Assembly (NCBI RefSeq): GCF_000026545.1 | Contig: NC_011601.1 | Strand: one strand, 5' to 3' | Origin: Escherichia coli O127:H6 str. E2348/69 | Lineage (GTDB): Bacteria; Pseudomonadota; Gammaproteobacteria; Enterobacterales; Enterobacteriaceae | Length of the DNA: 64,000 nucleotides | In this document: in pieces, positions 8,811 through 31,604 of the stretch | Layout of the letters: each line of letters opens with the position of its first letter | How positions within the stretch are numbered: position 1 is the stretch's first letter | Translations under genes and position numbers: made by a program | The notes under the pieces: model-generated | Told to the model about the DNA's origin: nothing | Databases searched by the model: none | The model's input: the letters and a program-made list of their open reading frames with translations, nothing else

Positions 8811-8814
8811 GTCT

Positions 8815-10150
8815 GTGTAAGTTCACAGAGATATTGCAATTGCCTCCGGATAAGTAAGGGGAGATTGCACTATGCAAATGCAGCATCTGATGGTTGGCTA
8901 TCCTAAGTACTACCAAACGGCCGATTATGCGTTGAGGCTTTCAGTGATGGCTGATATAGCAACAATGAGAATGAAGGCTCTGCACTTCTGGGATAAACAC
9001 GGTATTTCTGCAGCTTCTGAAGCCTTTGGCGTGTCCTGCCGCACGCTTTACTGGTGGCGTCAGTTACTGAACAAGGAAGGACCTGAGGGGCTAATCCCGC
9101 ACAGTAAGGCACCTCTGGTGCGACGAAAAAAACACTGGCATCCCGATGTGCTGAAAGAGATTCGACGCCTCAGGACAGAGCTGCCGAACCTCGGTAAAGA
9201 GCAGATTTTTGTTCGCCTGAAGCCCTGGTGCGAACAGCGCTATCTGGCCTGTCCGAGTGTTTCCACCATCGGCAGAATGATCGCTGCCGCACATGATAAA
9301 ATGCGGATGATACCTGTGCGTCTGGGATCGCGGGGGAAGGCACTGCTTGTCAAAAAGCGGTCTGCCAAACCCCGCAGGCCAAAGCACTACCGCCCGGTAA
9401 AGACAGGTGAGCTCATTGGGATGGACGCCATTGAGCTCAGAATGGGCGAACTGCGTCGCTATGTCATCACCATGATCGACGAATGCAGCAATTACGCGCT
9501 GGCGCTGGCTGTGCCGTCACTCAACAGTGATATCGTCAATCACTTCTTCAGCCGCGCAGCCCGGTTGTTCCCGGTCGGTATCAGCCAGATAATCACAGAT
9601 AACGGAAAAGAGTTCCTGGGAAACTTCGACAAAACGCTGCAGGAAGCCGCTATCAAACACCTCTGGACCTATCCCTACACGCCAAAAATGAACGCTATCT
9701 GTGAACGTTTTAACCGGACGTTAAGAGAGCAGTTTATTGAATTTAATGAGATTTTACTCTTTGAAGATCTGGCGCTATTTAACCAGAAGCTGGCGGAATA
9801 TCTGGTGCTGTATAACAGCAAAAGACCCCACAAGGCGCTCGCACTAATGACGCCCGTGGAATATATTTTAAAAGAGAATAAAAATTGCAATATGTGGTGG
9901 ACCCATACAATGTCTTGCCTCCTTGCAAAGAAGAGACTAACATCCGAATTGCTTAGGTTCGAACGTAGGCCTCAGGTTGATAGAAATATCGCCTGGGGCT
10001 TTTGTCCATCTGGAACCTCGCGAATGCTTAACGCCAGACAGCCTCAAGCACCCAACGCCATTCTATACCTGTTAATTTTCCCTGCGATGTTCACCTTTAA
10101 ATGCCGGAATGCTGCTCGCAAAATAAAAACGCCCCATCATTTCTGACAGA
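8815..10150 (+). mobile_element. insertion sequence (boundaries approximate; terminal inverted repeats not confidently identified)
   Basis: Transposase gene in a locus that is otherwise K-12-collinear; left end must lie between the hok start (8810) and tnp start (8872). Confidence 0.4.
8872..10146 (+). CDS. DDE (rve integrase-core) transposase with N-terminal HTH; IS481-family-like single-ORF transposase; C-terminal ~90 aa may be read-through
   Basis: 424-aa ORF with HTH (GVSCRTLYWWRQ) followed by rve motifs (ITDNGKEF, NSKRPHKAL); sits where the cas genes are in K-12. Confidence 0.7.
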   Translation: MQMQHLMVGYPKYYQTADYALRLSVMADIATMRMKALHFWDKHGISAASEAFGVSCRTLYWWRQLLNKEGPEGLIPHSKAPLVRRKKHWHPDVLKEIRRLRTELPNLGKEQIFVRLKPWCEQRYLACPSVSTIGRMIAAAHDKMRMIPVRLGSRGKALLVKKRSAKPRRPKHYRPVKTGELIGMDAIELRMGELRRYVITMIDECSNYALALAVPSLNSDIVNHFFSRAARLFPVGISQIITDNGKEFLGNFDKTLQEAAIKHLWTYPYTPKMNAICERFNRTLREQFIEFNEILLFEDLALFNQKLAEYLVLYNSKRPHKALALMTPVEYILKENKNCNMWWTHTMSCLLAKKRLTSELLRFERRPQVDRNIAWGFCPSGTSRMLNARQPQAPNAILYLLIFPAMFTFKCRNAARKIKTPHHF

Positions 10151-15252: not shown

Positions 15253-16524
15253 ATGGAAGACGACTGCGACATTATTATTATCGGTGCCGGAATTGCTGGC
15301 ACCGCTTGCGCGTTACGCTGCGCGCGAGCGGGTTTATCCGTTTTGTTACTGGAACGAGCGGAGATTCCCGGCAGCAAAAATCTTTCCGGCGGGCGGCTAT
15401 ACACTCATGCGCTCGCGGAACTCCTCCCGCAATTTCACCTGACCGCGCCTCTTGAACGACGCATCACTCACGAAAGTCTTTCTCTGTTAACGCAAGATGG
15501 CGCAACGACGTTTTCCAGCTTACAGCCCGGCGGTGAATCCTGGAGTGTATTACGTGCACGATTCGATCCGTGGCTGGTTGCCGAAGCCGAAAAAGAAGGT
15601 GTCGAATGCATCCCCGGTGCGACGGTAGATGCACTGTATGAAGAAAACGGCAGGGTGTGTGGTGTCATTTGTGGTGACGATATTCTTCGCGCCCGTTATG
15701 TGGTGCTGGCAGAAGGTGCCAACAGCGTCCTGGCGGAACGCCACGGGTTAGTGACTCGTCCTGCTGGCGAAGCGATGGCATTGGGGATCAAAGAAGCGCT
15801 GGCGCTGGAACCATCCGCTATTGAAGAACGTTTTCATCTGGAGAATAACGAAGGCGCAGCGTTGCTGTTCAGCGGCGGAATCTGTGATGACTTACCCGGC
15901 GGCGCATTTCTTTATACTAATCAACAAACGCTCTCGTTAGGGATTGTTTGCCCGCTCTCCTCCCTTACGCAAAGTCGTGTTCCGGCAAGCGAGCTGCTGG
16001 CTCGCTTTAAAACGCATCCGGCAGTGCGCCCGCTTATCAAAAACACGGAATCACTGGAGTATGGTGCGCATCTGGTGCCAGAAGGTGGCCTGCGCAGTAT
16101 GCCGGTGCAATACGCCGGTAACGGCTGGCTGCTGGTGGGCGATGCGTTGCGCAGTTGCGTCAATACCGGAATTTCCGTGCGCGGTATGGATATGGCGCTA
16201 ACTGGCGCGCAGGCGGCGGCACAAACGCTGATAAGCGCCTGCCAGCACCGCGAGCCGCAAAATCTGTTTCCGCTTTATCATCACAACGTAGAGCGCAGCC
16301 TGCTGTGGGATGTTCTACAGCGTTATCAGCATGTTCCGGCGCTTTTGCAACGCCCTGGCTGGTATCGGGTGTGGCCTGGGTTAATGCAGGATATTTCCCG
16401 TGATTTATGGGATCAGGGGAATACACCTGTTCCACCGCTGCGCCAGTTGCTCTGGCGTCATTTACGTCGTCACGGCCTGTGGCATCTGACGGGCGATGTT
16501 ATCAGGAGTCTGCGATGTCTGTAG
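15253..16524 (+). CDS. ygcN: FAD-dependent oxidoreductase, FixC/ETF-QO-like
   Basis: 423 aa from Met 11 of track ORF; Rossmann GxGxxG (DIIIIGAGIAG). Confidence 0.8.
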   Translation: MEDDCDIIIIGAGIAGTACALRCARAGLSVLLLERAEIPGSKNLSGGRLYTHALAELLPQFHLTAPLERRITHESLSLLTQDGATTFSSLQPGGESWSVLRARFDPWLVAEAEKEGVECIPGATVDALYEENGRVCGVICGDDILRARYVVLAEGANSVLAERHGLVTRPAGEAMALGIKEALALEPSAIEERFHLENNEGAALLFSGGICDDLPGGAFLYTNQQTLSLGIVCPLSSLTQSRVPASELLARFKTHPAVRPLIKNTESLEYGAHLVPEGGLRSMPVQYAGNGWLLVGDALRSCVNTGISVRGMDMALTGAQAAAQTLISACQHREPQNLFPLYHHNVERSLLWDVLQRYQHVPALLQRPGWYRVWPGLMQDISRDLWDQGNTPVPPLRQLLWRHLRRHGLWHLTGDVIRSLRCL

Positions 16525-16775
16525 CCCGTAATCTCTGGCGCGCTGCCGATGCGCCGCACATTGTTCCGGCTGACTCCGTTGAGCGCCAGACGGCACAACG
16601 GTTGATTAACGCCTGTCCAGCAGGTCTTTTTTCGCTCACACCTGAAGGTGGCTTACGTGTTGATTATCACGGCTGCCTGGAGTGTGGCGCCTGCCGTTTG
16701 CTGTGCGACGAATCAACACTACAACAGTGGCGCTATCCGCCTTCCGGATTCGGCATCACCTACCGCTTTGGATAA
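16515..16775 (+). CDS. ygcO: ferredoxin-like protein, FixX-like
   Basis: 86 aa MSVARNLWRAADAPHIVPADSVE... with Cys cluster; overlaps ygcN end. Confidence 0.75.
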   Translation: MSVARNLWRAADAPHIVPADSVERQTAQRLINACPAGLFSLTPEGGLRVDYHGCLECGACRLLCDESTLQQWRYPPSGFGITYRFG

Positions 16776-16791
16776 ATAATAAGGATAATTT

Positions 16792-17367
16792 ATGCCCCTC
16801 TTACACCTGCTCCGCCAGAATCCGGTGATTGCTGCCGTTAAAGATAATGCCAGCCTGCAACTGGCAATCGACTCTGAATGCCAGTTTATTTCCGTGTTGT
16901 ACGGCAATATCTGCACCATTAGTAATATCGTTAAAAAGATTAAGAACGCCGGGAAATATGCTTTTATTCATGTTGATTTGCTGGAAGGCGCGTCAAATAA
17001 AGAAGTGGTGATTCAGTTTTTGAAACTGGTGACCGAGGCGGACGGAATTATCAGTACCAAAGCCTCAATGCTGAAAGCAGCAAGAGCGGAAGGTTTTTTC
17101 TGTATTCATCGACTGTTTATTGTTGATTCGATTTCGTTTCACAACATTGATAAGCAAGTTGCGCAATCGAATCCGGATTGTATTGAGATCCTGCCAGGCT
17201 GCATGCCTAAAGTGCTGGGCTGGGTGACGGACAAAATCCGCCAACCGCTGATTGCTGGCGGGCTGGTGTGCGATGAAGAAGATGCGCGTAATGCGATTAA
17301 CGCGGGTGTTGTGGCGCTTTCCACCACGAATACTGGGGTCTGGACGTTAGCGAAAAAATTGCTTTGA
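16792..17367 (+). CDS. ygcP: GlpP-family (glycerol-3-phosphate responsive antiterminator-like) protein
   Basis: 191-aa ORF in the K-12 ygcP position. Confidence 0.75.
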   Translation: MPLLHLLRQNPVIAAVKDNASLQLAIDSECQFISVLYGNICTISNIVKKIKNAGKYAFIHVDLLEGASNKEVVIQFLKLVTEADGIISTKASMLKAARAEGFFCIHRLFIVDSISFHNIDKQVAQSNPDCIEILPGCMPKVLGWVTDKIRQPLIAGGLVCDEEDARNAINAGVVALSTTNTGVWTLAKKLL

Positions 17368-17403
17368 CGGGATAATCGTAACAAGTTGAATTTGGTGTGA
17401 TTT

Positions 17404-17473
17404 GTAGGCTGCACGCCACATCCGACATCCAGCGCCTGATGCGACGCTTGACGCGTCTTATCAGGCCTACAAG
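17404..17473. repeat. BIME (two REP units in inverted orientation) between ygcP and ygcQ
   Basis: tgtaggctgcacgccacatccgacatc ... gcctgatgcgacgcttgacgcgtcttatcaggcctacaag. Confidence 0.6.
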
Positions 17474-17514
17474 TCCCCAGCCCAGAACCATCGGCAGGAT
17501 CATCCGGCAGCACG

Positions 17515-18375
17515 TTATTGGCAATCTGCGTGAATGTTTGTCACCAGTGCCTCCAGCACCACTTTCCAGTCATCAATCACGCCAACATCTGCCTGTGAAA
17601 ATACCGCTGCACTGGCGTCATGATTAATCGCCACCACAAACTTGCTATTGCGTACGCCCGCCATTAACGCTGCTGCGCCGGAAGCGCCAACAACAATACA
17701 CACCTCAGGTGCCAGCAGATGTCCGGAAATACCAATCACTTTTTCGGCATCAACGCCACCGTTCATCACTCGTGCCCGACTGTAGCCCACTTCGGCTCCC
17801 ATCTTTTCTGCCAGCATAGCGATTTCCTGGTTATCTGCCTCTCCGCCCTGCCCCACCACCAGCACCCGTCTGGCCTCAGCTAATGGGTCACGGGTAACAT
17901 TTTTCAGGTTTTCTATGCTGATAAGCCAGTCTGGAAGCGCGCCGGGGACAATGTTCAGTTGCTGCATCCCAGAGGGCAACGTGGCGTTTTTATCTGCTCC
18001 CGCCTGACGTGCCAGCGAAAGGCATAGCGGGCGTTTTTCTGTTTGCAGCGTCGCCGTTAGCGCATTTCCCCAGTGGGATTTGCGCACGCTTACGGTTGGA
18101 ATATCTAACGAAGTCACCTGGCAGATGCTTGCACCATGTAAACGCCAGGCCAGCCGGGTCGACAGTTCATCGCCAAACGTTCCCGGCGGAAAGAGAACAA
18201 CGTCCGCAGGCGTTCGTTGCCACTGTTCCACCAGCACATCCAGCACCTGTTCCGCAACCATCGGCTGTGGTTCTATTTGCCAATGTGCCAGGGTACAACC
18301 GCTGAAATCCTGCGCCGCCAGCCAGCTCGCTATTGCGGCATGTTCCTGATTTATTGTCACAATTGCGATATTCAT
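17515..18375 (-). CDS. ygcQ: electron transfer flavoprotein alpha-subunit-like
   Basis: 286 aa from internal Met MNIAIVTINQ...; ETF alpha FAD-binding C-terminal region. Confidence 0.8.
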   Translation of the reverse strand: MNIAIVTINQEHAAIASWLAAQDFSGCTLAHWQIEPQPMVAEQVLDVLVEQWQRTPADVVLFPPGTFGDELSTRLAWRLHGASICQVTSLDIPTVSVRKSHWGNALTATLQTEKRPLCLSLARQAGADKNATLPSGMQQLNIVPGALPDWLISIENLKNVTRDPLAEARRVLVVGQGGEADNQEIAMLAEKMGAEVGYSRARVMNGGVDAEKVIGISGHLLAPEVCIVVGASGAAALMAGVRNSKFVVAINHDASAAVFSQADVGVIDDWKVVLEALVTNIHADCQ

Positions 18376-19151
18376 GGCTGCATCCTTTGGCGTAAATAGT
18401 CCTGCCATAGCTTTTGCGCTTTTTCTGCTACCGTTTGCCCATCAATCAGCGCCGCTCTGCGTCGTTGCTCTGGCCTTGCCAGTTGCAGGCACTGTATCGC
18501 TGGCGCTTCCGCGGCAACAGTTTCGCGGGTAATCTCCGCTTTCCCCGCCGCCATTCGCTGGCGCATTCCCGGTACTGGCAAGGCCACTTCACCACACTGA
18601 CGCACGGCAATCACCGCAGGCAAGCGAACCCGGCAACAGCGTACCCCATGTTCAGTACGCTGTTCGAGGGTGATAAACGGTGCGTCGAGAGTAAAGCGCT
18701 CCACCTGGGTGAAGCAGGGCCAGACCAGCATTTCCGCCAGCAAAAATGGCGTTTGCCCATTCTGCCCTTCGCTGCTTTGGCAGCCAGTAATTATCAGATC
18801 CAGCGGATTCTGGTACTGCCATTCGGCAATATGGCGAGCGACAAATTCCGGCGCAAAGCACAGATCTGCCGCCGTCTCCAGCAATACAGCGTCCTCAAAC
18901 CCAAGAGCCATGAGATAGCGCAGCCAGTGCAACGCCCGTTCATCCCCCATGCTCAACGCGGTTAAAGACATCGGCGTACCGTTTTTTCTCTGCGCCAACA
19001 GCAGCGCGGCGGCAGCCTGTTCATCGGCACCGAGTAAACTTCGCAGAAGCGAAACATCCGGTCCGATATTACCCTGAGCCGCCGCCTGCCACTCTTTTTC
19101 CGCCAGCATTCCGGCATCCGGTTCGGCTTTAAACGCTAACAGAATGTTCAT
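18372..19151 (-). CDS. ygcR: electron transfer flavoprotein beta-subunit-like
   Basis: 259 aa MNILLAFKAEPD...; overlaps ygcQ start. Confidence 0.8.
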   Translation of the reverse strand: MNILLAFKAEPDAGMLAEKEWQAAAQGNIGPDVSLLRSLLGADEQAAAALLLAQRKNGTPMSLTALSMGDERALHWLRYLMALGFEDAVLLETAADLCFAPEFVARHIAEWQYQNPLDLIITGCQSSEGQNGQTPFLLAEMLVWPCFTQVERFTLDAPFITLEQRTEHGVRCCRVRLPAVIAVRQCGEVALPVPGMRQRMAAGKAEITRETVAAEAPAIQCLQLARPEQRRRAALIDGQTVAEKAQKLWQDYLRQRMQP

Positions 19152-20466
19152 TCGCACCTCCTACATTTCCCGCCGCCACCAGCGGGAGTGCTTTGGTTTC
19201 TGGTGCCCATAGCCAGGTCACAACAAAACCAACCAACAACACTGCCGCCAGGAGCAATAAGGTGACTTGCATTCCCCACTGCGCCAGCACCCACGGCAGC
19301 AGGCCCGTACTTACTGCCGCGCCCAACCGACTCATGGCGGTGGCAAAACCGACGCCCAGCGAGCGAATGTCAGTAGGAAAACTTTCCGCAGGCAAAATGC
19401 CCACCAGATTACTGACTGCCGAAATGGTGGTGCTGAAGAGAACAAAAAGCAGCAGCGTTAATGAACTGCCGGAAGGCAAACAGGCCATCACTACCAGCGT
19501 TGCCGCCAGCAGCAAAAAACTTCCCAGTAAAAATCTGCGATGTGCCAGCAGGTGCGTCAGAACTAATCCCAGCAGCGCGCCCACAATTAACAACGCATTA
19601 AGCATCAGGCTGGCAGTCAGCGCATCTTCCAGACCAATAGTTTGGGCGATGGTCGGCAGCCAGGTATAAATCACAAACCATGGGATTACGAGGCAGACAA
19701 AGAAGACGCTGTTAAACGCCGTGCGCCGCCAGTAGCGCGAAGAGAACAAGGTTTTGATGTGTTTATGGGTCGCCGTTGCCACTTCATCGCCCAGTAAAAC
19801 ATGCGGGCCAAAATAGCGATGAACGATAGCGTGAGCTTCTGCAAAACGCCCCTGGCGCAGTAGCCAGCGTGGCGATTCCGGCGTGCCCCAACGTAGCAGC
19901 GTAATCAGCAAAGCTGGTAACGCCGCTGATGCCAGCAGCCAGCGCCAGGCCTCCGGGCTTTCGGAAATAAAGTGATGTCCGGCAATACTTGCCAGCACAT
20001 AGCCTACGGTCCACACCACACTGAATGCGCCCAGCAAAATACCGCGATGGCGGCGCGGGGAAAATTCAGCCAGCAAGGTGTGACCGACTGAGTAATCGCC
20101 TCCCAGACCAATGCCGATCAAAATGCGCAATCCAATAAGATGCTCTGGCGTGGTGGCAAAAAATTGCAAGAACGAAGCGAGCGTAATCAGCATAAAACTG
20201 AAGGTGAAGATTTTTTGCCGCCCGATATGGTCGGAGATCCACCCCAAAACCAGGCTGCCAAGAAACAAACCAAGTAACGCCGAGCCGCCGATCATTCCCG
20301 CCATAAACGGCGTCAGTTGCATGGCGGGCGTAAGCTGAATAATGGCGTAACCAATGACGCCGAGAACATAACCGTCGGTCAGGTGTGCGCCGAAAGTGAG
20401 CGCAGCAATGCGGCAGTGAAAACGGTTAAGTGGTAAATCATCCATTCGCACCGGTGAAGTGTTCAT
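19129..20466 (-). CDS. ygcS: MFS transporter
   Basis: 445 aa from internal Met MNTSPVRMDD...; 12-TM hydrophobic profile. Confidence 0.8.
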   Translation of the reverse strand: MNTSPVRMDDLPLNRFHCRIAALTFGAHLTDGYVLGVIGYAIIQLTPAMQLTPFMAGMIGGSALLGLFLGSLVLGWISDHIGRQKIFTFSFMLITLASFLQFFATTPEHLIGLRILIGIGLGGDYSVGHTLLAEFSPRRHRGILLGAFSVVWTVGYVLASIAGHHFISESPEAWRWLLASAALPALLITLLRWGTPESPRWLLRQGRFAEAHAIVHRYFGPHVLLGDEVATATHKHIKTLFSSRYWRRTAFNSVFFVCLVIPWFVIYTWLPTIAQTIGLEDALTASLMLNALLIVGALLGLVLTHLLAHRRFLLGSFLLLAATLVVMACLPSGSSLTLLLFVLFSTTISAVSNLVGILPAESFPTDIRSLGVGFATAMSRLGAAVSTGLLPWVLAQWGMQVTLLLLAAVLLVGFVVTWLWAPETKALPLVAAGNVGGANEHSVSV

Positions 20467-20559
20467 CTTTACCCCTTCATTGTCCGGTAATAAGAACGGC
20501 TTCTCGCCTGAGAAGCCGAAAAGGCAACGCCCTGTCATCGAGGAACGCTGCCTCACACA

Positions 20560-22014
20560 TTATTTTTCAATCGGATAGATAGTACCCGTATTCATAATGC
20601 CGTTAGGATCGAACTGTTTTTTCAGACCTTCCAGCAACGTCCACGCGCTGCCGTGTTCCAGTTTGCTCCAGTGAACGCGATGTTTACCGATACCGTGGTG
20701 GTGCACCATCGAACCGCCGAGACGAATGGTTTCTTCGCAGATGATTTTGTTGAGCGGATTGTGGTACTTGTCGATTTCCTCTTCCGGCTTACAGTCAACG
20801 ACGTTGTAGTCGTAGACGAAGTACATGTTGGTGCCGTTCTGATAGCTATGAGAGGAGTGACCGCCCAGCATGGTGATGTCGTCGGCGTGCGGGAACTCGG
20901 TACGAATACGGTTAATAACGCTTTCGTAGATTTCGTGAATGCAGCTCCAGCAGCCGGACACTTCAGTGGTAAAGCCCATGTTGCCGGTTTTGAGGATCTG
21001 CACACGTTCGGCAGCCACTTTATCCGGTCCCCAGTTCAGGTTGTTAAACCAGGTTTCGATCAGCTTGCTGTCCACGCGCTGGCACTGCGGGTAGCACGCC
21101 ACGATTTCAGCAATCCCTTCACCCGTCGCCTTCGCAATGCGAGGGTTACCTTCAGCCATAAAGATCAGCACGCATTTGCCGTCGGCAAAATGGGTGAAGT
21201 GTTGGGTGCCATCTTCAGCATCATACAAACGAGCAATCGACGGACGATACCCTTCCACCATGATTTCACGCAGGATGTTGAAGCCGGTTTTCATGTCTTC
21301 CAGCACATAGCCATAGAAGAGATTGTTTTCCGGCGTAAATTTGAAGATTTTCACTGTGACTTCAGTGATATAGCACAGTGCACCTTCGTTGCCGATGATG
21401 ATATGACGAATGTCCGGGCCAGCCGCGCGACGTGGCACGTTTTTAATGCGTGTGACGGTGCCATCTGCCAGCACCGCTTCCAGACCAACGACCATATCCT
21501 CGATTGCGCCGTAGAGTGTGGAAAACTGCCCGATACTGCGGGTCGCCACCAGGCCGCCCATCTGCGCCAGCGGCTTTGACTGCGGAGAATGCCCCGTGGT
21601 GTAACCTTTTTCACGCAGCGCGTTTTCCAGCACCTCCAGCGGAACGCCACATTGCGCCGTGGCCTGCATATTCTCAATATCAATATTAATGATTTGATTC
21701 ATGGCGGAGCCGTCGAGCACCACCGAGTTTTCCACAACGGTTTCCAGCCCACCTTCGGTGGCGGAAGCACCGGTACGTGGCACACCGTTAATTTTGTGCG
21801 CATTCATAAAATTCAGCACACGGGATACTTGTTCTGTGGAACCGAGTTTTACGACCGCTGCCGGAATTGGCAAAGTATAAATGCCATGAATATCCGGAAA
21901 TTTACGAAAACGGTCAATACTGTTCTTCTTTAATACTGTTTCATCGGTAATTACGCGATCTGCACCAACAATTTCCTTTAGCTGGTCGACAATCGCTACG
22001 CGAGATAAAGACAT
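20560..22014 (-). CDS. ygcU: FAD-linked oxidase (GlcD / alkyl-DHAP-synthase-like)
   Basis: 484 aa, FAD_binding_4-like N-terminus. Confidence 0.8.
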   Translation of the reverse strand: MSLSRVAIVDQLKEIVGADRVITDETVLKKNSIDRFRKFPDIHGIYTLPIPAAVVKLGSTEQVSRVLNFMNAHKINGVPRTGASATEGGLETVVENSVVLDGSAMNQIINIDIENMQATAQCGVPLEVLENALREKGYTTGHSPQSKPLAQMGGLVATRSIGQFSTLYGAIEDMVVGLEAVLADGTVTRIKNVPRRAAGPDIRHIIIGNEGALCYITEVTVKIFKFTPENNLFYGYVLEDMKTGFNILREIMVEGYRPSIARLYDAEDGTQHFTHFADGKCVLIFMAEGNPRIAKATGEGIAEIVACYPQCQRVDSKLIETWFNNLNWGPDKVAAERVQILKTGNMGFTTEVSGCWSCIHEIYESVINRIRTEFPHADDITMLGGHSSHSYQNGTNMYFVYDYNVVDCKPEEEIDKYHNPLNKIICEETIRLGGSMVHHHGIGKHRVHWSKLEHGSAWTLLEGLKKQFDPNGIMNTGTIYPIEK

Positions 22015-22083
22015 AGTAATTCCTTCCTGATAATAAAAATGGAATAGTTATTAATAAGAGAAAACAGAAACCACCGTTATGAA

Positions 22084-22869
22084 TTAGCGCACTAAATAAC
22101 CGCCATCAACCACTAATAAATGTCCGTTGACATAATTCGATGCCGGACTTGCGAGGAATACGGCTGCACCCATTAAATCCTGAGTATCACCCCAACGGTT
22201 TGCCGGAATATGATCAAGAACACGCTGGTTAGTTTCTGGATTACTACGGGTCGCCAGCGTAATATCGGTTGCATAATAACCAGGAGCAATACCATTCACC
22301 TGAATATTATATTGGCCTAATTCATCGCAATAGGCTTTGGTGAATCCGGCAAGAGCATGTTTAGTGGCAGAATAAGCAGGTGACCATTGACCACCTAAGT
22401 AAGAGAACAATGAACAGATATTAATGATTTTACCGCTTTTCTGCGGGATCATAATTTTTGCCGCTTCGTAGCTTAACTCGAATGCGGCGGTCAGGTTCAC
22501 GTCAATCATCGGGTCCCAGTCGGCACGACCAAAGTCCAGCACCTTATTCAGCTTACAAATACCGGCATTGTTAACCAGAATATCTACGGTACCGAAGCGC
22601 TCACAGCAGGCAGCGATAATCTTCTGCGGCGCGCCTTCTGCGGTGATATCCACCTGCATAAAATCAACTTCGACACCCTGTTTTTCAATCATTTCCTTTG
22701 TTTCGCCGTTATCTTTGACGAAACTAGGAATAAAGACATTTGCGCCAGCTTTGGCCAACGCCATGGCAAATGCCTGGCCTAAACCGCTATTCCCGCCAGT
22801 AACAATTGCTGTTTTACCTTTCAGGGAGAAAAAATCCATTGAGAACGCATTGAGAGATTCGATTGACAT
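22084..22869 (-). CDS. ygcW: short-chain dehydrogenase/reductase
   Basis: 261 aa from internal Met MSIESLNAF...; TGGNSGLG cofactor motif, YxxxK. Confidence 0.8.
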   Translation of the reverse strand: MSIESLNAFSMDFFSLKGKTAIVTGGNSGLGQAFAMALAKAGANVFIPSFVKDNGETKEMIEKQGVEVDFMQVDITAEGAPQKIIAACCERFGTVDILVNNAGICKLNKVLDFGRADWDPMIDVNLTAAFELSYEAAKIMIPQKSGKIINICSLFSYLGGQWSPAYSATKHALAGFTKAYCDELGQYNIQVNGIAPGYYATDITLATRSNPETNQRVLDHIPANRWGDTQDLMGAAVFLASPASNYVNGHLLVVDGGYLVR

Positions 22870-22984
22870 AGTTAGCTCCAATTTCCGTAAGGCAAAAAAA
22901 AAGAAAGGTAACTTCCCCCGCGAGAGGGAAGTTACCTTTCTCATTATCTCTGGTAACTGGAGATAATTTTTAGCATAAGGACAT

Positions 22985-23000
22985 AACTGCTAATGTGATC
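22985..23000. promoter_or_regulatory. perfect CRP consensus site TGTGA-N6-TCACA in ygcW/yqcE divergent intergenic region
   Basis: tgtgatcgtaatcaca. Confidence 0.45.
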
Positions 23001-23186
23001 GTAATCACAGTGTGATGTTCGTATTGTCAAATAATTTAAAAAAGCAGAAGCGTGATTACTCTCACACAACACCTCTGCTTTCCATGTTATTTCTTATTGC
23101 AATTACTAGAGACCTGAGAAAAGTAATCCACCTGAAAGGGCGGCTTACTTTTCTCTTTTTTTGTCTATTACAAATGGGAATACGAT

Positions 23187-24464
23187 ATGCAACACAACTC
23201 ATATCGCCGTTGGATAACCCTCGCGATAATTAGTTTTAGCGGCGGCGTTAGTTTCGACCTGGCTTATTTACGTTATATTTATCAAATTCCCATGGCAAAA
23301 TTTATGGGATTCAGCAATACCGAGATAGGTTTAATAATGAGTACCTTTGGTATTGCGGCCATTATTTTCTATGCCCCTAGCGGCGTTATTGCCGATAAAT
23401 TTTCACATCGCAAAATGATTACTTCCGCGATGATCATTACCGGATTACTGGGTCTGTTAATGGCAACATATCCACCGCTGTGGGTAATGCTCTGTATTCA
23501 GGTCGCCTTTGCGATAACGACGATTTTAATGCTGTGGTCGGTGTCGATTAAAGCCGCATCGTTGCTGGGCGATCATAGCGAGCAAGGGAAAATTATGGGC
23601 TGGATGGAAGGGCTGCGCGGCGTCGGTGTAATGTCGCTGGCGGTGTTTACCATGTGGGTCTTTTCTCGCTTTGCACCGGATGACAGCGCCAGCCTGAAAA
23701 CGGTCATTATTATCTATAGTGTGGTTTACATTCTGCTGGGCATTTTGTGTTGGTTTTTTGTTAGCGATAACAACAATCTGCGCAGTGCCAATAACGAAGA
23801 AAAACAGTCATTCCAGCTTAGCGACATCCTGGCCGTTTTGCGCATCAGCACCACCTGGTATTGCAGCATGGTGATTTTTGGTGTCTTCACCATCTACGCC
23901 ATTCTGAGTTACTCCACCAACTATCTGACCGAAATGTACGGCATGTCGTTGGTGGCGGCGAGCTACATGGGGATTGTGATCAACAAAATCTTCCGCGCGC
24001 TGTGCGGCCCACTTGGCGGCATTATCACCACCTACAGTAAAGTGAAATCCCCTACCCGCGTGGTCCAAATCCTTTCCATCATCGGTTTGCTGGCGTTGAC
24101 AGCCCTGCTCGTCACGAACTCTAACCCGCAATCGGTCGCGATGGGGATTGGCCTGATTTTATTACTGGGATTCACCTGTTACGCCTCACGCGGGCTGTAC
24201 TGGGCCTGCCCTGGCGAAGCGAGAACACCGTCTTACATTATGGGCACCACGGTAGGTATTTGTTCGGTGATTGGATTTCTGCCGGATGTCTTCGTTTACC
24301 CGATTATCGGCTACTGGCAAGACACCCTGCCCGCTGCAGAAGCCTACCGCAACATGTGGCTAATGGGCATGGCGGCGCTTGGCATGGTGATCATCTTTAC
24401 CTTTTTGCTGTTCCAAAAAATTCGTACTGCTGATAGCGCCCCCGCAATGGCTAGCAGCAAGTAA
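23187..24464 (+). CDS. yqcE: MFS transporter
   Basis: 425-aa polytopic membrane ORF in the K-12 yqcE position. Confidence 0.8.
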   Translation: MQHNSYRRWITLAIISFSGGVSFDLAYLRYIYQIPMAKFMGFSNTEIGLIMSTFGIAAIIFYAPSGVIADKFSHRKMITSAMIITGLLGLLMATYPPLWVMLCIQVAFAITTILMLWSVSIKAASLLGDHSEQGKIMGWMEGLRGVGVMSLAVFTMWVFSRFAPDDSASLKTVIIIYSVVYILLGILCWFFVSDNNNLRSANNEEKQSFQLSDILAVLRISTTWYCSMVIFGVFTIYAILSYSTNYLTEMYGMSLVAASYMGIVINKIFRALCGPLGGIITTYSKVKSPTRVVQILSIIGLLALTALLVTNSNPQSVAMGIGLILLLGFTCYASRGLYWACPGEARTPSYIMGTTVGICSVIGFLPDVFVYPIIGYWQDTLPAAEAYRNMWLMGMAALGMVIIFTFLLFQKIRTADSAPAMASSK

Positions 24465-24490
24465 GCCAGGAAAATTACAGGAGAAAAATC

Positions 24491-25969
24491 ATGTCGAAAA
24501 AATACATCATAGGGATTGATGGCGGAAGTCAGAGCACAAAAGTGGTGATGTACGATCTGGAAGGTAATGTGGTTTGCGAAGGCAAAGGCTTATTGCAGCC
24601 GATGCACACGCCAGATGCCGATACCGCAGAACATCCTGACGACGATTTATGGGCATCACTATGTTTTGCCAGTCACGATTTGATGAGCCAGTTTGCCGGA
24701 AATAAAGAAGATATTGTCGGCATTGGCCTGGGCTCAATCCGTTGCTGCCGTGCGTTATTGAAAGCCGATGGTACGCCAGCCGCGCCGTTGATTAGCTGGC
24801 AGGATGCACGCGTTACACGCCCTTACGAACACACTAATCCTGACGTGGCCTATGTCACCTCTTTTTCGGGTTATCTGACACATCGCTTAACCGGCGAGTT
24901 TAAAGACAATATCGCCAACTATTTTGGTCAGTGGCCGGTGGATTATAAGAGCTGGGCATGGAGCGAAAATGCCGCGGTAATGGAAAAGTTTAATATCCCC
25001 CGCCAGATGCTTTTTGACGTGCAAATGCCAGGCACTGTTCTTGGGCATATCACACCACAAGCTGCGCTGGCGACACATTTCCCGGCTGGGCTGCCGGTTG
25101 TTTGTACCACCAGTGATAAACCGGTAGAAGCTCTGGGAGCCGGGTTACTGGATGATGAAACGGCGGTAATTTCTCTTGGCACCTACATCGCGTTGATGAT
25201 GAACGGCAAAGCACTGCCGAAAGATCCGGTCGCGTACTGGCCGATTATGTCTTCTATTCCGCAAACATTGCTGTATGAAGGTTACGGTATTCGCAAAGGC
25301 ATGTGGACGGTGAGCTGGCTGCGCGACATGTTAGGCGAGTCGTTAATTCAGGATGCCAAAGCACAGGATCTTTCACCGGAAGATTTGCTCAACAAAAAAG
25401 CGTCTTGCGTGCCACCTGGTTGTAATGGGCTGATGACGGTGCTGGACTGGCTGACCAATCCGTGGGAACCGTACAAACGCGGAATTATGATCGGCTTTGA
25501 TTCCAGCATGGATTACGCATGGATATATCGTTCGATACTGGAAAGCGTGGCGCTGACGCTGAAGAACAATTACGACAATATGTGTAATGAAATGAATCAC
25601 TTTGCAAAGCATGTGATCATTACTGGCGGCGGTTCGAACAGCGATCTGTTTATGCAGATTTTTGCCGACGTGTTCAACCTTCCGGCACGCCGTAACGCCA
25701 TTAATGGTTGTGCAAGTCTGGGGGCAGCGATCAATACGGCGGTAGGTCTGGGGCTATACCCGGATTACGCAACGGCTGTCGACAAAATGGTTCGCGTGAA
25801 AGATATCTTTATGCCTGTTGAGAGCAACGCCAAACGCTACGACGCGATGAATAAAGGCATTTTCAAAGACCTAACCAAACACACTGATGTGATCCTGAAA
25901 AAATCGTATGAAGTGATGCATGGGGAATTGGGGAATGCGGATTCGATCCAGAGCTGGTCGAATGCGTAA
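24491..25969 (+). CDS. ygcE: FGGY-family carbohydrate kinase
   Basis: 492 aa, N-terminal IGIDGGSQSTKVVMYD actin-fold kinase motif. Confidence 0.8.
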   Translation: MSKKYIIGIDGGSQSTKVVMYDLEGNVVCEGKGLLQPMHTPDADTAEHPDDDLWASLCFASHDLMSQFAGNKEDIVGIGLGSIRCCRALLKADGTPAAPLISWQDARVTRPYEHTNPDVAYVTSFSGYLTHRLTGEFKDNIANYFGQWPVDYKSWAWSENAAVMEKFNIPRQMLFDVQMPGTVLGHITPQAALATHFPAGLPVVCTTSDKPVEALGAGLLDDETAVISLGTYIALMMNGKALPKDPVAYWPIMSSIPQTLLYEGYGIRKGMWTVSWLRDMLGESLIQDAKAQDLSPEDLLNKKASCVPPGCNGLMTVLDWLTNPWEPYKRGIMIGFDSSMDYAWIYRSILESVALTLKNNYDNMCNEMNHFAKHVIITGGGSNSDLFMQIFADVFNLPARRNAINGCASLGAAINTAVGLGLYPDYATAVDKMVRVKDIFMPVESNAKRYDAMNKGIFKDLTKHTDVILKKSYEVMHGELGNADSIQSWSNA

Positions 25970-26133: not shown

Positions 26134-27054
26134 ATGAGCGCAAGAGTATGGGTACTCGGTGATGCGGTTGTTGATTTATTACCCGAAAGCCAGGGGAGAC
26201 TACTACAGTGTCCTGGCGGGGCGCCTGCTAATGTTGCAGTCGGTATCGCAAGGCTGGGGGGGAAAAGTGCCTTTATTGGCAAAGTTGGCGATGATCCTTT
26301 CGGTCGCTTTATGTATCAGACACTGAGTACAGAAAATGTTGATACACGTTATATGTCTCTTGATCCTCAACAACGCACCTCAATTGTGGCTGTAGGACTT
26401 GATGAGCAAGGAGAAAGAAACTTTACCTTTATGGTACGCCCAAGTGCCGATCTTTTTTTACAACCTGATGACCTTCCTACATTTGGGCCGGGTGAATGGC
26501 TCCATCTTTGTTCCATTGCGCTCAGTGCAGAACCTTCCCGAAGTACCGCATTTCTGGCTATGGAGAAAATACGTCAGGCTGGCGGAAACATCAGTTTTGA
26601 TCCCAATATCCGCAGCGATCTCTGGCAGAGTGAAGCGCTATTAAGAAAATACCTTGATCGCGCGCTTTCGCTGGCGAATATCGCTAAATTGTCCGAAGAA
26701 GAGTTGCTATTCATCAGTGGCGAAAGCCAGGTTCAGCAAGGCGCATATTCATTAGTACAACGTTATTCGTTGACTTTATTGCTTATCACACAAGGAAAAA
26801 ATGGCGTACTTGTGTATTTTCAGGGGCAGTTTATCCACTATCCCGCCAAACCTGTTTCTGTCGTCGATACGACCGGGGCAGGAGATGCTTTTGTCGCTGG
26901 ATTACTTGCAGGTCTGGCTGATTCTGGAATACCAACAAATACCAGACAGCTTGAACGAATCATTGCACAAGCTCAGATTTGTGGTGCTCTGGCGACCACG
27001 GCTAAAGGCGCGATGACCGCCTTACCCCGACAACACGATCTCCCTTCACAATAG
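26134..27054 (+). CDS. scrK: fructokinase (PfkB family)
   Basis: 306 aa, ribokinase-family motifs (GGAPANVA, DTTGAGDAF). Confidence 0.85.
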   Translation: MSARVWVLGDAVVDLLPESQGRLLQCPGGAPANVAVGIARLGGKSAFIGKVGDDPFGRFMYQTLSTENVDTRYMSLDPQQRTSIVAVGLDEQGERNFTFMVRPSADLFLQPDDLPTFGPGEWLHLCSIALSAEPSRSTAFLAMEKIRQAGGNISFDPNIRSDLWQSEALLRKYLDRALSLANIAKLSEEELLFISGESQVQQGAYSLVQRYSLTLLLITQGKNGVLVYFQGQFIHYPAKPVSVVDTTGAGDAFVAGLLAGLADSGIPTNTRQLERIIAQAQICGALATTAKGAMTALPRQHDLPSQ

Positions 27055-27104
27055 TGATCCTGCTGTTGTATCTGTAACCCGATTTGTCGTGCCTGTCACA
27101 TTTA

Positions 27105-27178
27105 CTAAATCGGTTTAGCGAAAATAATTGCTCTGGCTAAAAAGTCAGCTTTATTATCAACACCTAAACCGGTTTAGC
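27105..27178. promoter_or_regulatory. two palindromic operators (ctaaatcggtttag and ctaaaccggtttag) in scrY promoter region
   Basis: 14-bp near-perfect and perfect palindromes 45 bp apart, same half-site (AAACCG) as the scrK operator. Confidence 0.5.
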
Positions 27179-27197
27179 ATTTTAGCAATTTTTATAA

Positions 27198-28739
<1,542 letters not shown>

Positions 28740-28799
28740 TACCAGACAGCCTCACGGATGTGAGGCTTTTACTGAAATAACAATGAATTAGAGGGTTAT

Positions 28800-30170
28800 A
28801 TGGATTTCGATAAAATCGCCCAATCGTTGCTTCCTTTATTAGGTGGTAAGGAGAACATCGCCAGTGCAGCACATTGCGCCACTCGCCTACGGCTGGTACT
28901 GGTTGACGACACACTTGCCGATCAACATGCCATTGGCCAGATTGATGGAGTGAAAGGTTGTTTTCGTAATTCAGGGCAAATGCAAATCATCTTTGGCACC
29001 GGCGTGGTTAATAAAGTCTATGCTGCCTTTATTCAGGTTGCAGGTATTAGCGAATCCAGTAAAGCAGATACCGCTCGACTCGCCGCTCAAAAACTCAATC
29101 CTTTTCAGCGAATAGCACGGCTACTTTCTAATATTTTTGTCCCCATCATTCCAGCCATTGTTGCTTCTGGTTTATTAATGGGGCTCCTGGGAATGGTGAA
29201 AACATATGGCTGGGTGAATGCCGATAATGCGATTTATATCCTGCTGGATATGTGCAGTTCAGCCGCATTTATTATTCTCCCCATCCTTATTGGCTTTACT
29301 GCTGCTCGTGAATTTGGTGGAAATCCTTATCTTGGCGCGACATTAGGAGGGATTCTGACTCACCCGGCACTCACAAATGCCTGGGGCGTTGCTGCGGGAT
29401 TTCAGACAATGAACTTCTTCGGTTTTGAAATCGCCATGATTGGCTATCAGGGAACGGTTTTCCCCGTGCTTCTGGCAGTATGGTTTATGAGCATAGTGGA
29501 AAAACAGTTACGCAGGTTTATCCCTGATGCTCTGGATCTCATTCTGACGCCATTTCTGACTGTCGTCATTTCTGGCTTTATCGCTCTTTTGATTATTGGT
29601 CCGGCAGGACGAGCGTTAGGTGACGGTATCTCTTTCGTTCTCAGCACGCTGATTGCACACGCAGGCTGGTTAGCAGGGTTGTTATTCGGCGGGCTATATT
29701 CAGCGATTGTTATTACGGGTATTCATCATAGCTTCCACGCAATTGAAGCAGGACTTTTAGGTAACCCTGCAATCGGTGTTAATTTCCTGCTGCCTATTTG
29801 GGCAATGGCAAACGTTGCGCAAGGAGGTGCATGTCTGGCGGTATGGTTTAAAACCAAAGATACAAAAATTAAAGCAATCACCCTACCCTCGGCCTTTTCC
29901 GCAATGTTAGGGATTACTGAAGCCGCTATTTTTGGTATCAACCTTCGTTTTGTTAAACCTTTTATTGCGGCCTTAATTGGTGGCGCTGCCGGCGGTGCCT
30001 GGGTTGTCTCTGTTCACGTTTATATGACTGCCGTTGGTCTGACCGCAATACCCGGCATGGCAATCGTTCAGCCAACATCGTTGGTTAATTATATTATTGG
30101 AATGGTGATTGCTTTCGCTGTCGCTTTTAGCCTCTCTTTATTACTCAAATACAAAACGGACGAGGAGTAA
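28800..30170 (+). CDS. scrA: PTS sucrose-specific EIIBC
   Basis: 456 aa, EIIB Cys motif (AAHCATRLR) plus EIIC membrane domain. Confidence 0.85.
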   Translation: MDFDKIAQSLLPLLGGKENIASAAHCATRLRLVLVDDTLADQHAIGQIDGVKGCFRNSGQMQIIFGTGVVNKVYAAFIQVAGISESSKADTARLAAQKLNPFQRIARLLSNIFVPIIPAIVASGLLMGLLGMVKTYGWVNADNAIYILLDMCSSAAFIILPILIGFTAAREFGGNPYLGATLGGILTHPALTNAWGVAAGFQTMNFFGFEIAMIGYQGTVFPVLLAVWFMSIVEKQLRRFIPDALDLILTPFLTVVISGFIALLIIGPAGRALGDGISFVLSTLIAHAGWLAGLLFGGLYSAIVITGIHHSFHAIEAGLLGNPAIGVNFLLPIWAMANVAQGGACLAVWFKTKDTKIKAITLPSAFSAMLGITEAAIFGINLRFVKPFIAALIGGAAGGAWVVSVHVYMTAVGLTAIPGMAIVQPTSLVNYIIGMVIAFAVAFSLSLLLKYKTDEE

Positions 30171-31579
30171 TGTCGATGCCTTCACAAATGCCCGCGATTT
30201 TACAGGCAGTGATGAAAGGTCAGTCCAAAGCACTGGCAGATGCCCACTATCCTTGTTGGCATCTCGCTCCAGTCACCGGACTAATGAACGATCCAAATGG
30301 CTTTTGTTGGTCTGGAGGCCGCTATCATCTGTTTTATCAATGGAATCCACTGGCTTGTGATCATAAGTACAAATGTTGGGGGCACTGGAGTTCGACGGAT
30401 TTATTGCACTGGCAGCATGAACCATTAGCGCTAATGCCCGATAAAGAGTACGACCGTAATGGTTGTTACTCAGGAAGCGCGGTTAATAATCAGGGCGTTC
30501 TCACACTTTGCTATACCGGTAATGTTAAGTTTGATGATGGCAGCAGAACGGCATGGCAATGCCTGGCCACCGAAAATAACCAGGGCGGGTTTGATAAACT
30601 AGGCCCTGTCATACCGTTACCTGATGGTTACACCGGACATGTTCGTGATCCAAAAGTCTGGAAGCACAACAGCCAATGGTACATGGTGCTTGGCGCGCAA
30701 GATAAAGAGAAACGGGGGAAAGTGCTGCTGTATTCCTCTGTCGATCTCTATACCTGGTCTTTTCATGGAGAAATTGCTGGTAACGGTCTGAATGAAATAG
30801 ATAACGCAGGATACATGTGGGAATGTCCTGATCTTTTCGCCCTTGATGGTGAATACATTCTCCTCTGTTGCCCCCAGGGAATGGTGCGCGAACATGAGCG
30901 CTATCTGAATACTTATCCCTGCGCCTGGCTACATGGACAGTTTGATTACGAGACAGGCAAATTTACGCATGGCGCTTTCTCAGAGCTGGATGCGGGATTT
31001 GAATTCTATGCACCACAGACGATGGAAGCCCCGGACGGGCGACGATTGCTGGTCGGCTGGATGGGGGTTCCTGATGGCGAAGAGATGTTGCAGCCAACCA
31101 GAAAGCATCATTGGCAGCATCAAATGACCTGTTTTCGCGAACTCTCATTCCAGAAGGGAAAATTGTTTCAGATGCCAATCAGGGAACTCGCGCAACTGCG
31201 TGAAGCTGAACACTTCTGGCAAGGAAAAGCGGATCATGCGCCGCATGTCGAAATTGAACGCCTGGAAATGGACATCATTCCGTCGGGTGAGCTGTATCTG
31301 AATTTTGGCAATGCGCTGGCACTGCATCTTAATGACGATGGTATTCAACTACAGAGGAGAAGCCTTGCAGGGCAAGAGAAACTAACTCGTTACTGGCGAG
31401 GAAGCGTAACGTCACTGAAGATTCTCTGTGACAGTTCCAGCGTAGAGATATTCATCAATAATGGTGAAGGTGTAATGAGTAATCGTTATTTTCCCCATCA
31501 TCCAGCTTCGCTGATATTACAGGGTGAGTCTGACGTCACGTTACGCTACTGGTCGCTACGCGCCTGCATGGTAGAATGA
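30170..31579 (+). CDS. scrB: sucrose-6-phosphate hydrolase (GH32)
   Basis: 469 aa, GH32 motifs (NDPNG, RDP, EC); start overlaps scrA stop. Confidence 0.85.
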
Positions 31580-31604
31580 GGGTTTTGAATTACGGATCCT
31601 CGTC

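Follow-up and report, generated by a model that had tools for sequence, protein, structure and literature searches.

In the glp regulon of Bacillus subtilis, GlpP and glycerol-3-phosphate (G3P) control glpD, glpFK and glpTQ by antitermination, and the GlpP targets carry a promoter, a GlpP site and a terminator in their 5' untranslated region (UTR) (PMC9604022). Here we analysed a cluster of ten genes, ygcN, ygcO, ygcP, ygcQ, ygcR, ygcS, ygcU, ygcW, yqcE and ygcE, lying at positions 15253-25969 of a stretch of 64,000 nucleotides (the window) that is chromosomal DNA of Escherichia coli O127:H6 E2348/69, with 100% identity across the cluster. It shares with the glp regulon a PF04309 regulator, the succession of promoter, protein-binding leader and intrinsic terminator in the 5' UTR, superimposed catabolite control, and an FGGY kinase with a flavin dehydrogenase acting on the phosphorylated product. 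Other described systems resemble it in part. The E. coli caiTABCDE-fixABCX genes of anaerobic carnitine metabolism likewise devote an electron-transferring flavoprotein (ETF) and an ETF:quinone oxidoreductase (ETF-QO) of the FixABCX type to a single catabolic operon, depend on CRP and act on a quaternary amine, as we infer for the ygc genes. In the lactate dehydrogenase-ETF LctBCD of Acetobacterium woodii, too, the gene for a FAD dehydrogenase of the GlcD superfamily stands beside etfB and etfA, and the erythritol pathway of Brucella and Rhizobium has the same succession of an FGGY kinase (EryA) and a flavin-dependent oxidation of the polyol phosphate to a keto-phosphate (EryB). Finally, the eukaryotic alkyl-dihydroxyacetonephosphate synthase (ADPS, or AGPS) is the top match of YgcU in both sequence and fold, and its catalytic tyrosine, phosphate-binding arginine and triple-histidine loop are kept.

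A preliminary description of this DNA had recognised a catabolic cluster that was still uncharacterised, in which an ETF/ETF-QO module is combined with a GlpP-like antiterminator and with CRP control, and for which no substrate had been assigned. The domains, the CRP site and published CRP binding bear this out, and the full-text literature searched by gene name holds no defined substrate or pathway for any of the ten genes, only genome-wide screens and incidental mentions. Whilst the y-gene cluster itself is known, a core conserved across phyla, a link to onium compounds, an ADPS-like active site and a leader riboregulator are new here, and the riboregulator, as read from the alignments, is the firmest new result. 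Our best model is a CRP-dependent, YgcP-antiterminated regulon in which an onium diol would be taken up, oxidised, phosphorylated and converted by an ADPS-like, ETF-linked step to a triose-level phosphate. Taken as a whole this model is plausible, if somewhat short of probable; its regulatory part (CRP and YgcP antitermination) is likely correct on the sequence evidence, and its enzymology is what we infer by analogy.

Leader RNAs and regulation of the cluster

The gene ygcP (16792-17367, + strand) encodes a GlpP-family antiterminator protein that matches the full PF04309 (G3P_antiterm) profile at E 2.4e-62 and the Listeria GlpP structure 3kts at E 2e-27, and it has orthologues in Firmicutes and Vibrionaceae at 56-63% identity. 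Its putative role comes from two leader RNAs with competing terminator and antiterminator structures, which the preliminary description had missed. The first, ahead of ygcW (22084-22869, - strand), spans 22892-22961 on the - strand and scores 80.3 bits with our covariance model. Its predicted 7-bp antiterminator hairpin, AGUUACC-AGAGAUAAUGAGAAA-GGUAACU, has its arms at 22958-22952 and 22936-22930, and a terminator scan places a 19-bp intrinsic terminator (22942-22901) with a U-run ~30 nt ahead of the start codon (fold z-score -5.6). The second, ahead of yqcE (23187-24464, + strand), spans 23098-23164 on the + strand and scores 73.7 bits; here the predicted 7-bp hairpin is AAUUACU-AGAGACCUGAGAAA-AGUAAUC, with arms at 23101-23107 and 23122-23128, and the same scan places a terminator hairpin (23116-23155) with U7 ~25 nt ahead of the start codon (fold z-score -4.4). 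In both leaders the 3' arm of the antiterminator is part of the 5' arm of the terminator. The longest ORF (open reading frame) of ygcW begins at 22944 (22084-22944, - strand), within the leader terminator hairpin; it is the RefSeq start, at 22869 and with GGAG ahead of it, that agrees with the leader structure.

The common loop motif occurs at only two sites in the window, one in each leader, against 0.01 expected, and the covariance model likewise finds exactly two true copies there. Covariation was measured on an alignment of 40 leader sequences, with 500 shuffles and slid controls for the antiterminator helix. This helix is 96.4% paired and holds two fully compensatory pairs, one changing from G-C to A-U in 12 sequences and the other from U-A to C-G in 7; its covariation score was attained by none of the 500 shuffles, and the slid controls collapse. 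In the terminator helix, pairing amounts to 90.2% and seven pairs are compensatory. Column 30 of the alignment, which is common to both helices, covaries with both of its partners, so that columns 10, 30 and 64 read C-G-C in 7 sequences and U-A-U in 30, a three-way covariation that is the signature predicted for mutually exclusive structures.

The element lies ahead of ygcW in enterics, and ahead of ygcW and of yqcE or a BCCT transporter gene in other phyla. Amongst non-enteric loci, the covariance model detects it in each of the 11 with YgcP and in none of the 21 lacking this protein. In 4870 E. coli genomes the ygcW leader is conserved at 99% identity or more; it is unannotated, and no Rfam family was found to match either leader. 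BLAST across 5426 E. coli genomes places the element at a median of two places per genome and gives no sign of extra regulon members. The leaders have the same layout as the B. subtilis GlpP targets. A PF04309 regulator, terminators in the 5' UTR and a competing, conserved leader element co-occurring with that regulator are all found here. In K-12, RNA-seq and northern blot have shown a leader-sized small RNA that comes from the same strand as yqcE and lies upstream of it (PMC4681348), which is what a constitutively terminated leader would look like.

Upstream of the leaders, the preliminary description had noted a perfect CRP site in the divergent ygcW/yqcE region. This site is real (TGTGATCGTAATCACA, 22994-23009, with perfect half-sites) and is the sole exact match in the window, where 0.05 would be expected by chance. 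It is not new: it was predicted in 2007 by PhyloScan (PMC1794230), recovered by genomic SELEX (PMC3105977), found bound in vivo by chromatin immunoprecipitation in enterotoxigenic E. coli (PMC4287617) and assigned a Kd of ~1.7 nM by Footprint-seq (PMC12871828), and yqcE-ygcE is on a list of Crp-activated units (PMC8085971). A second CRP-like site with one mismatch (CGTGATTACTCTCACA, 23051-23066) is placed for the yqcE promoter, on which it presumably acts; its distance from the yqcE leader is about that of the perfect site from the ygcW leader, which suggests one CRP site for each divergent promoter. Elsewhere in the window, one-mismatch CRP-like sites at 61980-61995 and 62020-62035, in the fucA-fucP divergent region, are presumably the known CRP sites of the fuc regulon.

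In the regulation that we propose, cAMP-CRP would activate the two divergent promoters, and each transcript would then meet the intrinsic terminator of its leader. YgcP, as a GlpP-type RNA-binding protein loaded with a phosphorylated intermediate of the pathway, would stabilise the 7-bp antiterminator hairpin, whose 3' arm lies within the terminator stem, and so allow read-through. The literature searched describes no earlier GlpP-type antitermination system in E. coli, so that this would be the first. The leaders together with YgcP could serve as a reporter for inducer screens, and could be deleted to force expression.

A three-enzyme core and the ADPS-like flavoenzyme YgcU

Conservation of the gene neighbourhood, named as a check within Enterobacteriaceae in the preliminary description, was followed across 80 loci, one genome per species, and five further contexts, scoring the ten E. 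coli proteins and clustering all ORFs. In 81 loci from different species, only YgcW, YgcU and YgcE recur throughout, and this core is kept across phyla, well beyond Enterobacteriaceae. YgcW is a KduD-like short-chain dehydrogenase/reductase (SDR); YgcE (24491-25969, + strand) is a kinase with FGGY_N and FGGY_C domains; and YgcU (20560-22014, - strand), the signature enzyme of the core, is a flavoenzyme of the VAO/GlcD superfamily with FAD_binding_4 and FAD-oxidase_C domains, closest to ADPS. Outside enterics, identity to the E. coli proteins is 65-81% for YgcW, 66-74% for the unusually conserved YgcU (71-74% in Sporomusa, Desulfobacula, Alkalihalobacillus and Photobacterium) and 42-58% for YgcE. 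YgcP occurs in 49 loci. Across the loci compared, the core is accompanied by no conserved aldolase, isomerase or dehydratase, so the three core enzymes must themselves reach central metabolism.

In 54-55 loci, amongst them all anaerobe loci with sufficient flanking sequence, ygcU is followed by the genes for ETF beta and alpha. The typical order in anaerobes is ygcW, ygcU, etfB, etfA, in some loci a second oxidase, and the kinase gene, whilst halophilic Bacilli have ygcP in reverse orientation followed by ygcW, the kinase gene, ygcU and a transporter gene. In Photobacterium and Clostridium sediminicola, YgcU has its own etfBA, and the second oxidase, which is LctD/D-lactate dehydrogenase (D-LDH)-like, is accompanied by another etfBA, with a ferredoxin domain in the alpha subunit. 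A separate etfBA for YgcU, together with ETF beside it in all anaerobes, indicates that YgcU is itself an ETF-linked dehydrogenase.

The closest solved relatives of YgcU are mammalian and Dictyostelium ADPS, ahead of glycolate oxidase, LctD and D-LDH: ADPS is matched at E 3.7e-40 in a single-sequence search and at 3.7e-56 in a profile search, LctD at E 8e-22. The best 34 Foldseek matches of the YgcU AlphaFold model are likewise all ADPS (E 4e-29, TM-score 0.70). Since the Protein Data Bank holds the Arg419His and Tyr578Phe mutants of ADPS, the alignment fixes the catalytic positions directly: Arg419 corresponds to R262 of YgcU (motif ARLYD), Tyr578 to Y398 (GTNMYFVY) and His615-617 to H438-440 (HHHGIGK), and all of these are invariant across the YgcU family. 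In ADPS the phosphate of acyl-dihydroxyacetonephosphate (acyl-DHAP) is bound by these residues, which also remove the proton from C1 and stabilise the enolate. This enolate attacks flavin N5, and the substituent at C1 then departs. Retention of the three catalytic hallmarks points to a DHAP-like keto-phosphate as the substrate of YgcU.

The remainder of ADPS is not kept. YgcU has 484 residues against 658, the alignment begins at ADPS residue 199 so that the N-terminal ~150-190 residues are absent, and the cap segment forming the lipid tunnel (ADPS 429-521, YgcU 274-343) is unaligned; the N-terminal domain and the hydrophobic tunnel for a fatty acyl or alcohol chain that mark ADPS are thus not found. 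YgcU is therefore predicted to work like ADPS at the flavin, yet to be no ADPS. Its linkage to ETF and ETF-QO argues for net electron transfer, as opposed to redox-neutral acyl/alkyl exchange.

Candidate substrate and pathway

The enteric transporters of the cluster are the major facilitator superfamily (MFS) proteins YgcS and YqcE. Outside enterics, genes for BCCT or OpuC-type ABC transporters (with an OpuAC binding protein) are co-operonic with the core or adjoin it in eight lineages: Halobacillus, Virgibacillus, Pontibacillus, Alkalihalobacillus, Photobacterium, Vibrio hannami, Arenicella and Clostridium sediminicola. A separate copy of the leader RNA stands ahead of the BCCT gene in Sporomusa-type loci, which places this gene in the same regulon. 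Amongst the non-enteric loci of at least 12 kb, 25 of 31 have BCCT, OpuAC, MttB or MtbB within 10 kb. In Desulfobacterales the operon abuts a non-pyrrolysine, MtgB-like methyltransferase of the MttB family (closest to glycine betaine methyltransferase, E 6e-118 to structures 9yce and 2qne), with corrinoid and pterin-binding partners alongside. Two metagenome-assembled genomes (MAGs) of this order carry, beside a ygcW-ygcU-type operon, MttB and MtbB genes in which a TAG stands in frame at the pyrrolysine position (locus L062, 7174-8646, + strand, and 1340-2770, - strand; locus L077, 1167-2700 and 2826-4300, both + strand), which marks them as true methyltransferases of trimethylamine and dimethylamine. 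What looked like a split MttB in locus L069 was dismissed as a reading-frame artefact, since it has TGA as its stop and an unrelated sequence. Three loci share a betaine-aldehyde-dehydrogenase-like gene.

The substrates of BCCT and OpuC transporters are nearly all quaternary ammonium, sulfonium or related zwitterionic compounds. These neighbours, together with the methyltransferases, suggest a substrate with an onium head group, in which a methylated amine or betaine would be a moiety of the substrate or a product. The substrate is probably an onium (choline- or betaine-like) compound with a diol rather than an ordinary sugar acid, whilst the onium diol as the specific substrate class is a tentative assignment. 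The polyol or sugar-acid route put forward in the preliminary description is probably too generic, since the non-enteric neighbourhoods point to a cationic or zwitterionic BCCT-type solute; the onium reading extends that proposal and in part contradicts it.

In the pathway that we propose, the substrate would be X-CH2-CHOH-CH2OH, a small glycerol-like vicinal diol with a cationic or zwitterionic onium head group, where X may be a trimethylammonium, a choline or phosphocholine group, or a betaine-bearing ether. It would be imported by YgcS and/or YqcE, and YgcW, as an NAD(P)-dependent SDR, would oxidise the secondary alcohol at C2 to a ketone. YgcE would phosphorylate the terminal CH2OH to give X-CH2-CO-CH2-OP; its closest solved relative, the AI-2 kinase LsrK (E 1.5e-29), phosphorylates the terminal CH2OH of a small keto-diol. 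YgcU would then bind the keto-phosphate through its Arg/Tyr/His-His-His site, enolise it onto the flavin and expel, or oxidise off, the C1 substituent X. Water, in place of a fatty alcohol, would add to the flavin iminium, and the adduct would collapse to a 2-oxoaldehyde (or keto-) phosphate and reduced flavin, which would explain, by chemical argument only, why an ETF is present. Electrons would pass from YgcU to the ETF (YgcRQ), then to YgcNO (FixCX-like, with the quinone-binding domain of ETF-QO) and on to quinone. The LctD-like second oxidase of anaerobes and the YghZ/YdjG-like aldo-keto reductase of certain enteric loci, which is related to L-glyceraldehyde-3-phosphate and methylglyoxal reductases, fit weakly with a 2-oxoaldehyde or 2-hydroxyacid downstream.

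Several points weigh against this pathway. The link between compound and genes is drawn from sequence and neighbourhood, with no experiment, and the order of the YgcW, kinase and YgcU steps is arbitrary. The AlphaFold model of YgcU is of moderate quality (pLDDT 70.5), and the chemistry of ADPS is redox-neutral, the need for ETF being accounted for by the chemical argument alone. MttB and BCCT genes are numerous in marine Desulfobacterales and in halophiles, so that some of the adjacency could be chance. Loci of the Serratia and Pantoea type, which encode a formaldehyde-activating-enzyme (Fae) homologue and the aldo-keto reductase and no ETF, are not predicted by the model. In these ETF- and FixCX-less enteric loci (L038-L044 and L076; Serratia, Pantoea, Erwinia), ygcS is in an operon with the genes for the Fae homologue, which scores above the TIGR03126 cut-off, and for the aldo-keto reductase, with a LysR regulator adjoining (for example L039, 2273-2776, and L038, 1294-2397); the two appear to be an alternative module to ETF/ETF-QO.

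A further set of observations would fit a sugar acid and favours a different explanation, ordinary catabolism of a neutral polyol or sugar acid, in which YgcW would be a dehydrogenase of the KduD or 5-keto-gluconate type, YgcE a pentulose or tetrulose kinase, and YgcU with its ETF a dehydrogenase of a 2-hydroxyacid or polyol phosphate (compare EryA/EryB). The best family match of YgcW is KduD (350 bits, cut-off 369), and the structures most closely related to it are those of 2-deoxy-D-gluconate 3-dehydrogenase and gluconate 5-dehydrogenases. The best substrate-specific NCBIfam scores of YgcE, all under cut-off, are to XylB (143 of 380 bits) and LsrK (141 of 528 bits); YqcE weakly resembles organic-anion carriers of the D-galactonate transporter family; and the E. 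coli cluster has MFS transporters and no BCCT gene. However, such a route is at odds with the lack of any conserved aldolase, isomerase or dehydratase, with the finding of BCCT or OpuC transporters in eight or more lineages outside enterics, one of these transporters sharing the leader riboregulator, with the adjoining methylamine methyltransferases, and with active-site residues in YgcU that are of the ADPS rather than the D-LDH type. We regard it as unlikely.

Somewhat more doubtful is a second route for glycerol, G3P or a glycerophosphodiester such as glycerophosphocholine, in which YgcE would make a glycerol-phosphate, YgcU would oxidise it to DHAP as an ETF-linked glycerol-phosphate dehydrogenase, G3P itself would be the effector of YgcP, and choline or phosphocholine would be a by-product. 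The PF04309 family is named for G3P, an ADPS-like site binds a DHAP moiety, and the genes resembling betaine-aldehyde dehydrogenase, glycine-betaine methyltransferase and trimethylamine and dimethylamine methyltransferases nearby in other phyla would suit such a by-product. In Arenicella, moreover, a PAF-acetylhydrolase-family esterase gene (locus L082, 6453-7934) directly follows the ygcU orthologue in a locus of the order BCCT, ygcW, kinase, ygcU. Set against this, E. coli already has complete glp and ugp systems, YgcE is nearer to LsrK than to glycerol kinases (~1e-19), no GlpF or GlpQ homologue is conserved with the core, and the highly conserved SDR would be left without explanation.

Returning to the onium-diol pathway, its most specific form would be a novel cleavage of a C-N+ or C-O bond beside a glycerol backbone by YgcW, YgcE and YgcU, with the ADPS-like flavoenzyme expelling X and passing electrons to ETF, under a GlpP-type riboregulator of a new class. 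The substrate would then be a 2,3-dihydroxypropyl-onium compound, or a glyceryl ether or phosphodiester with choline or betaine, which oxidation and phosphorylation would turn into an X-DHAP analogue; X would be trimethylamine, choline/phosphocholine or betaine. In this full form the proposal is quite unlikely to be right in every part. If true, most E. coli, together with many marine, plant-associated and gut bacteria, would possess a new route that releases trimethylamine or betaine and that, should X be trimethylamine or choline, would bear on trimethylamine production in the gut and on osmolyte turnover in marine sediments and salterns. The literature searched describes no pathway linking an FGGY kinase with BCCT, ETF or quaternary amines, none joining ADPS and trimethylamine, and none for dihydroxypropyl-trimethylammonium or homoserine betaine.

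Individual compounds were also considered and found unsupported: carnitine leaves the FGGY kinase without a role, plain choline has no diol, dihydroxypropanesulfonate (DHPS) is anionic and fits poorly with the BCCT and methylamine genes, and nicotinamide riboside leaves YgcW and YgcU unexplained. With this analysis the search moves from "some sugar" to a small class of diols that bear an onium group. It also singles out YgcU as a bacterial relative of an ether-lipid enzyme that probably carries out new chemistry.

The E. coli locus and its closest known systems

The gene set and limits given in the preliminary description for the ten genes are identical to the RefSeq annotation, and its domain assignments were confirmed for every protein by Pfam and NCBIfam. 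With the NCBIfam release of June 2026, none of the ten proteins reaches the cut-off of a function-specific (equivalog) model, and curated annotation therefore has no function for them. Judged by its gene overlaps and short gaps, the cluster consists of three transcription units, ygcNOP, ygcWUSRQ and yqcE-ygcE. In the first, ygcN (15253-16524, + strand) encodes a FixC-like FAD oxidoreductase, a putative ETF:quinone oxidoreductase by Pfam (DAO and ETFQO_UQ-bd) and RefSeq, which scores 380 and 363 bits with NCBIfam FixC-type subfamily models, under their cut-offs. It overlaps by 10 nt with ygcO (16515-16775, + strand), whose FixX-like ferredoxin product scores 81 bits with the FixX model against a cut-off of 166 and is therefore taken as a paralogue. 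In the second unit, ygcS (19129-20538, - strand) encodes an MFS transporter (Pfam Sugar_tr and MFS_1) with NCBIfam matches that include the aromatic-acid symporter, sugar porter and TIGR00898 cation transport protein families; ygcR (18372-19151, - strand) encodes the ETF beta subunit (Pfam ETF) and overlaps by 4 nt with ygcQ (17515-18375, - strand), which encodes an ETF alpha subunit (Pfam ETF_alpha and ETF) that has no ferredoxin domain. In the third, the MFS gene yqcE lies directly upstream of the kinase gene, as it always does; an MFS gene also adjoins the kinase gene in Photobacterium, whose YqcE orthologue is 58% identical, and in Vibrio hannami.

At least 80% of the length of the cluster is covered in 5060 of 5426 complete E. 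coli genomes (93%). All ten genes are under purifying selection in comparisons with other Escherichia and Citrobacter, the ratio of nonsynonymous to synonymous substitution rates (dN/dS) ranging in total from 0.01 to 0.26. It is 0.01-0.03 for ygcW, ygcU and ygcP and 0.07-0.26 for the ETF and ETF-QO genes, whose products evolve far faster than the core: against Citrobacter, YgcN, YgcO, YgcQ and YgcR are 59-76% identical (dN/dS 0.12-0.22) and YgcP, YgcU and YgcW 92-96% (dN/dS 0.01-0.04). Hypervariability of the ETF genes within the species was ruled out, as the comparison genome L005 is a divergent Escherichia (synonymous divergence dS ~0.3 for all genes) with all genes under purifying selection. 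Presence in most E. coli and purifying selection indicate a maintained, functional locus and no relic. It is highly improbable that the cluster is now functionless in E. coli, a silent remnant in decay: the literature searched reports no phenotype or inducer, and the ETF and ETF-QO proteins diverge as just described, yet all ten ORFs are intact, even the ETF module has a low dN/dS, the cluster is found in 93% of complete genomes, and the ygcW leader is nearly identical in 4870 genomes. The ten genes, found in about 93% of E. coli genomes, have gone without an assigned function for nearly thirty years and can now be put to direct test.

Published observations on single genes are few. Overexpression of YgcS raises the production of nicotinamide mononucleotide from nicotinamide (PMC8601175); ygcU is induced 1.7-fold by D-serine in enterohaemorrhagic E. 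coli, where its deletion is without effect (PMC13012123); and YgcE, up in inhibitor-stressed cells, was called an uncharacterised kinase with a role "not yet clear" in 2021 (PMC8605246).

Around these genes, a REP-like element lies in the convergent ygcP/ygcQ gap (17384-17467, + strand) and is the only Rfam match in the cluster (naRNA4, 39.9 bits, below the gathering score of 59.5). Between ygcE and queE, E2348/69 carries a sucrose-utilisation island (~26134-32600) with genes for a fructokinase-like kinase, the ScrY porin, sucrose phosphotransferase system IIBC, sucrose-6-phosphate hydrolase and a LacI-type regulator; in K-12, queE follows ygcE directly. A Hok/Gef toxin gene and a truncated integrase-core pseudogene (an insertion sequence remnant) lie between iap and cysH (~8658-9906).

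Compared with the B. subtilis glp regulon, the ygc genes stand in a Gram-negative host, with CRP in place of CcpA and a leader motif, AGUUACY-loop-RGUAACU, that belongs to no Rfam family. Their kinase is not GlpK-like, their dehydrogenase is ADPS-like and ETF-linked where the glp regulon has GlpD, their transporters are of the MFS, BCCT or OpuC type in place of GlpF, and an SDR is an obligatory extra. The erythritol pathway differs in its dehydrogenase family and transporters, and in having the isomerases EryC, TpiA2 and RpiB, which are absent here. LctBCD is marked by an EtfA with a ferredoxin domain and an LctD-type dehydrogenase, a combination found only in the second oxidase/ETF set of anaerobe loci: YgcU is not LctD-like, YgcQ lacks the Fer4 domain, and in E. 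coli an ETF-QO replaces the confurcating arrangement. In comparison with FixABCX, all parts of the module are present in YgcRQNO, though every one falls below the Fix equivalog and subfamily cut-offs, as paralogues rather than orthologues; unlike the cai-fix system, the partner enzyme is a VAO-type flavoenzyme instead of an acyl-CoA dehydrogenase, and genes for a CoA-transferase or CoA-ligase are lacking. Finally, in contrast to ADPS, YgcU is encoded together with an ETF, and its context is soluble catabolism rather than the synthesis of ether lipids.

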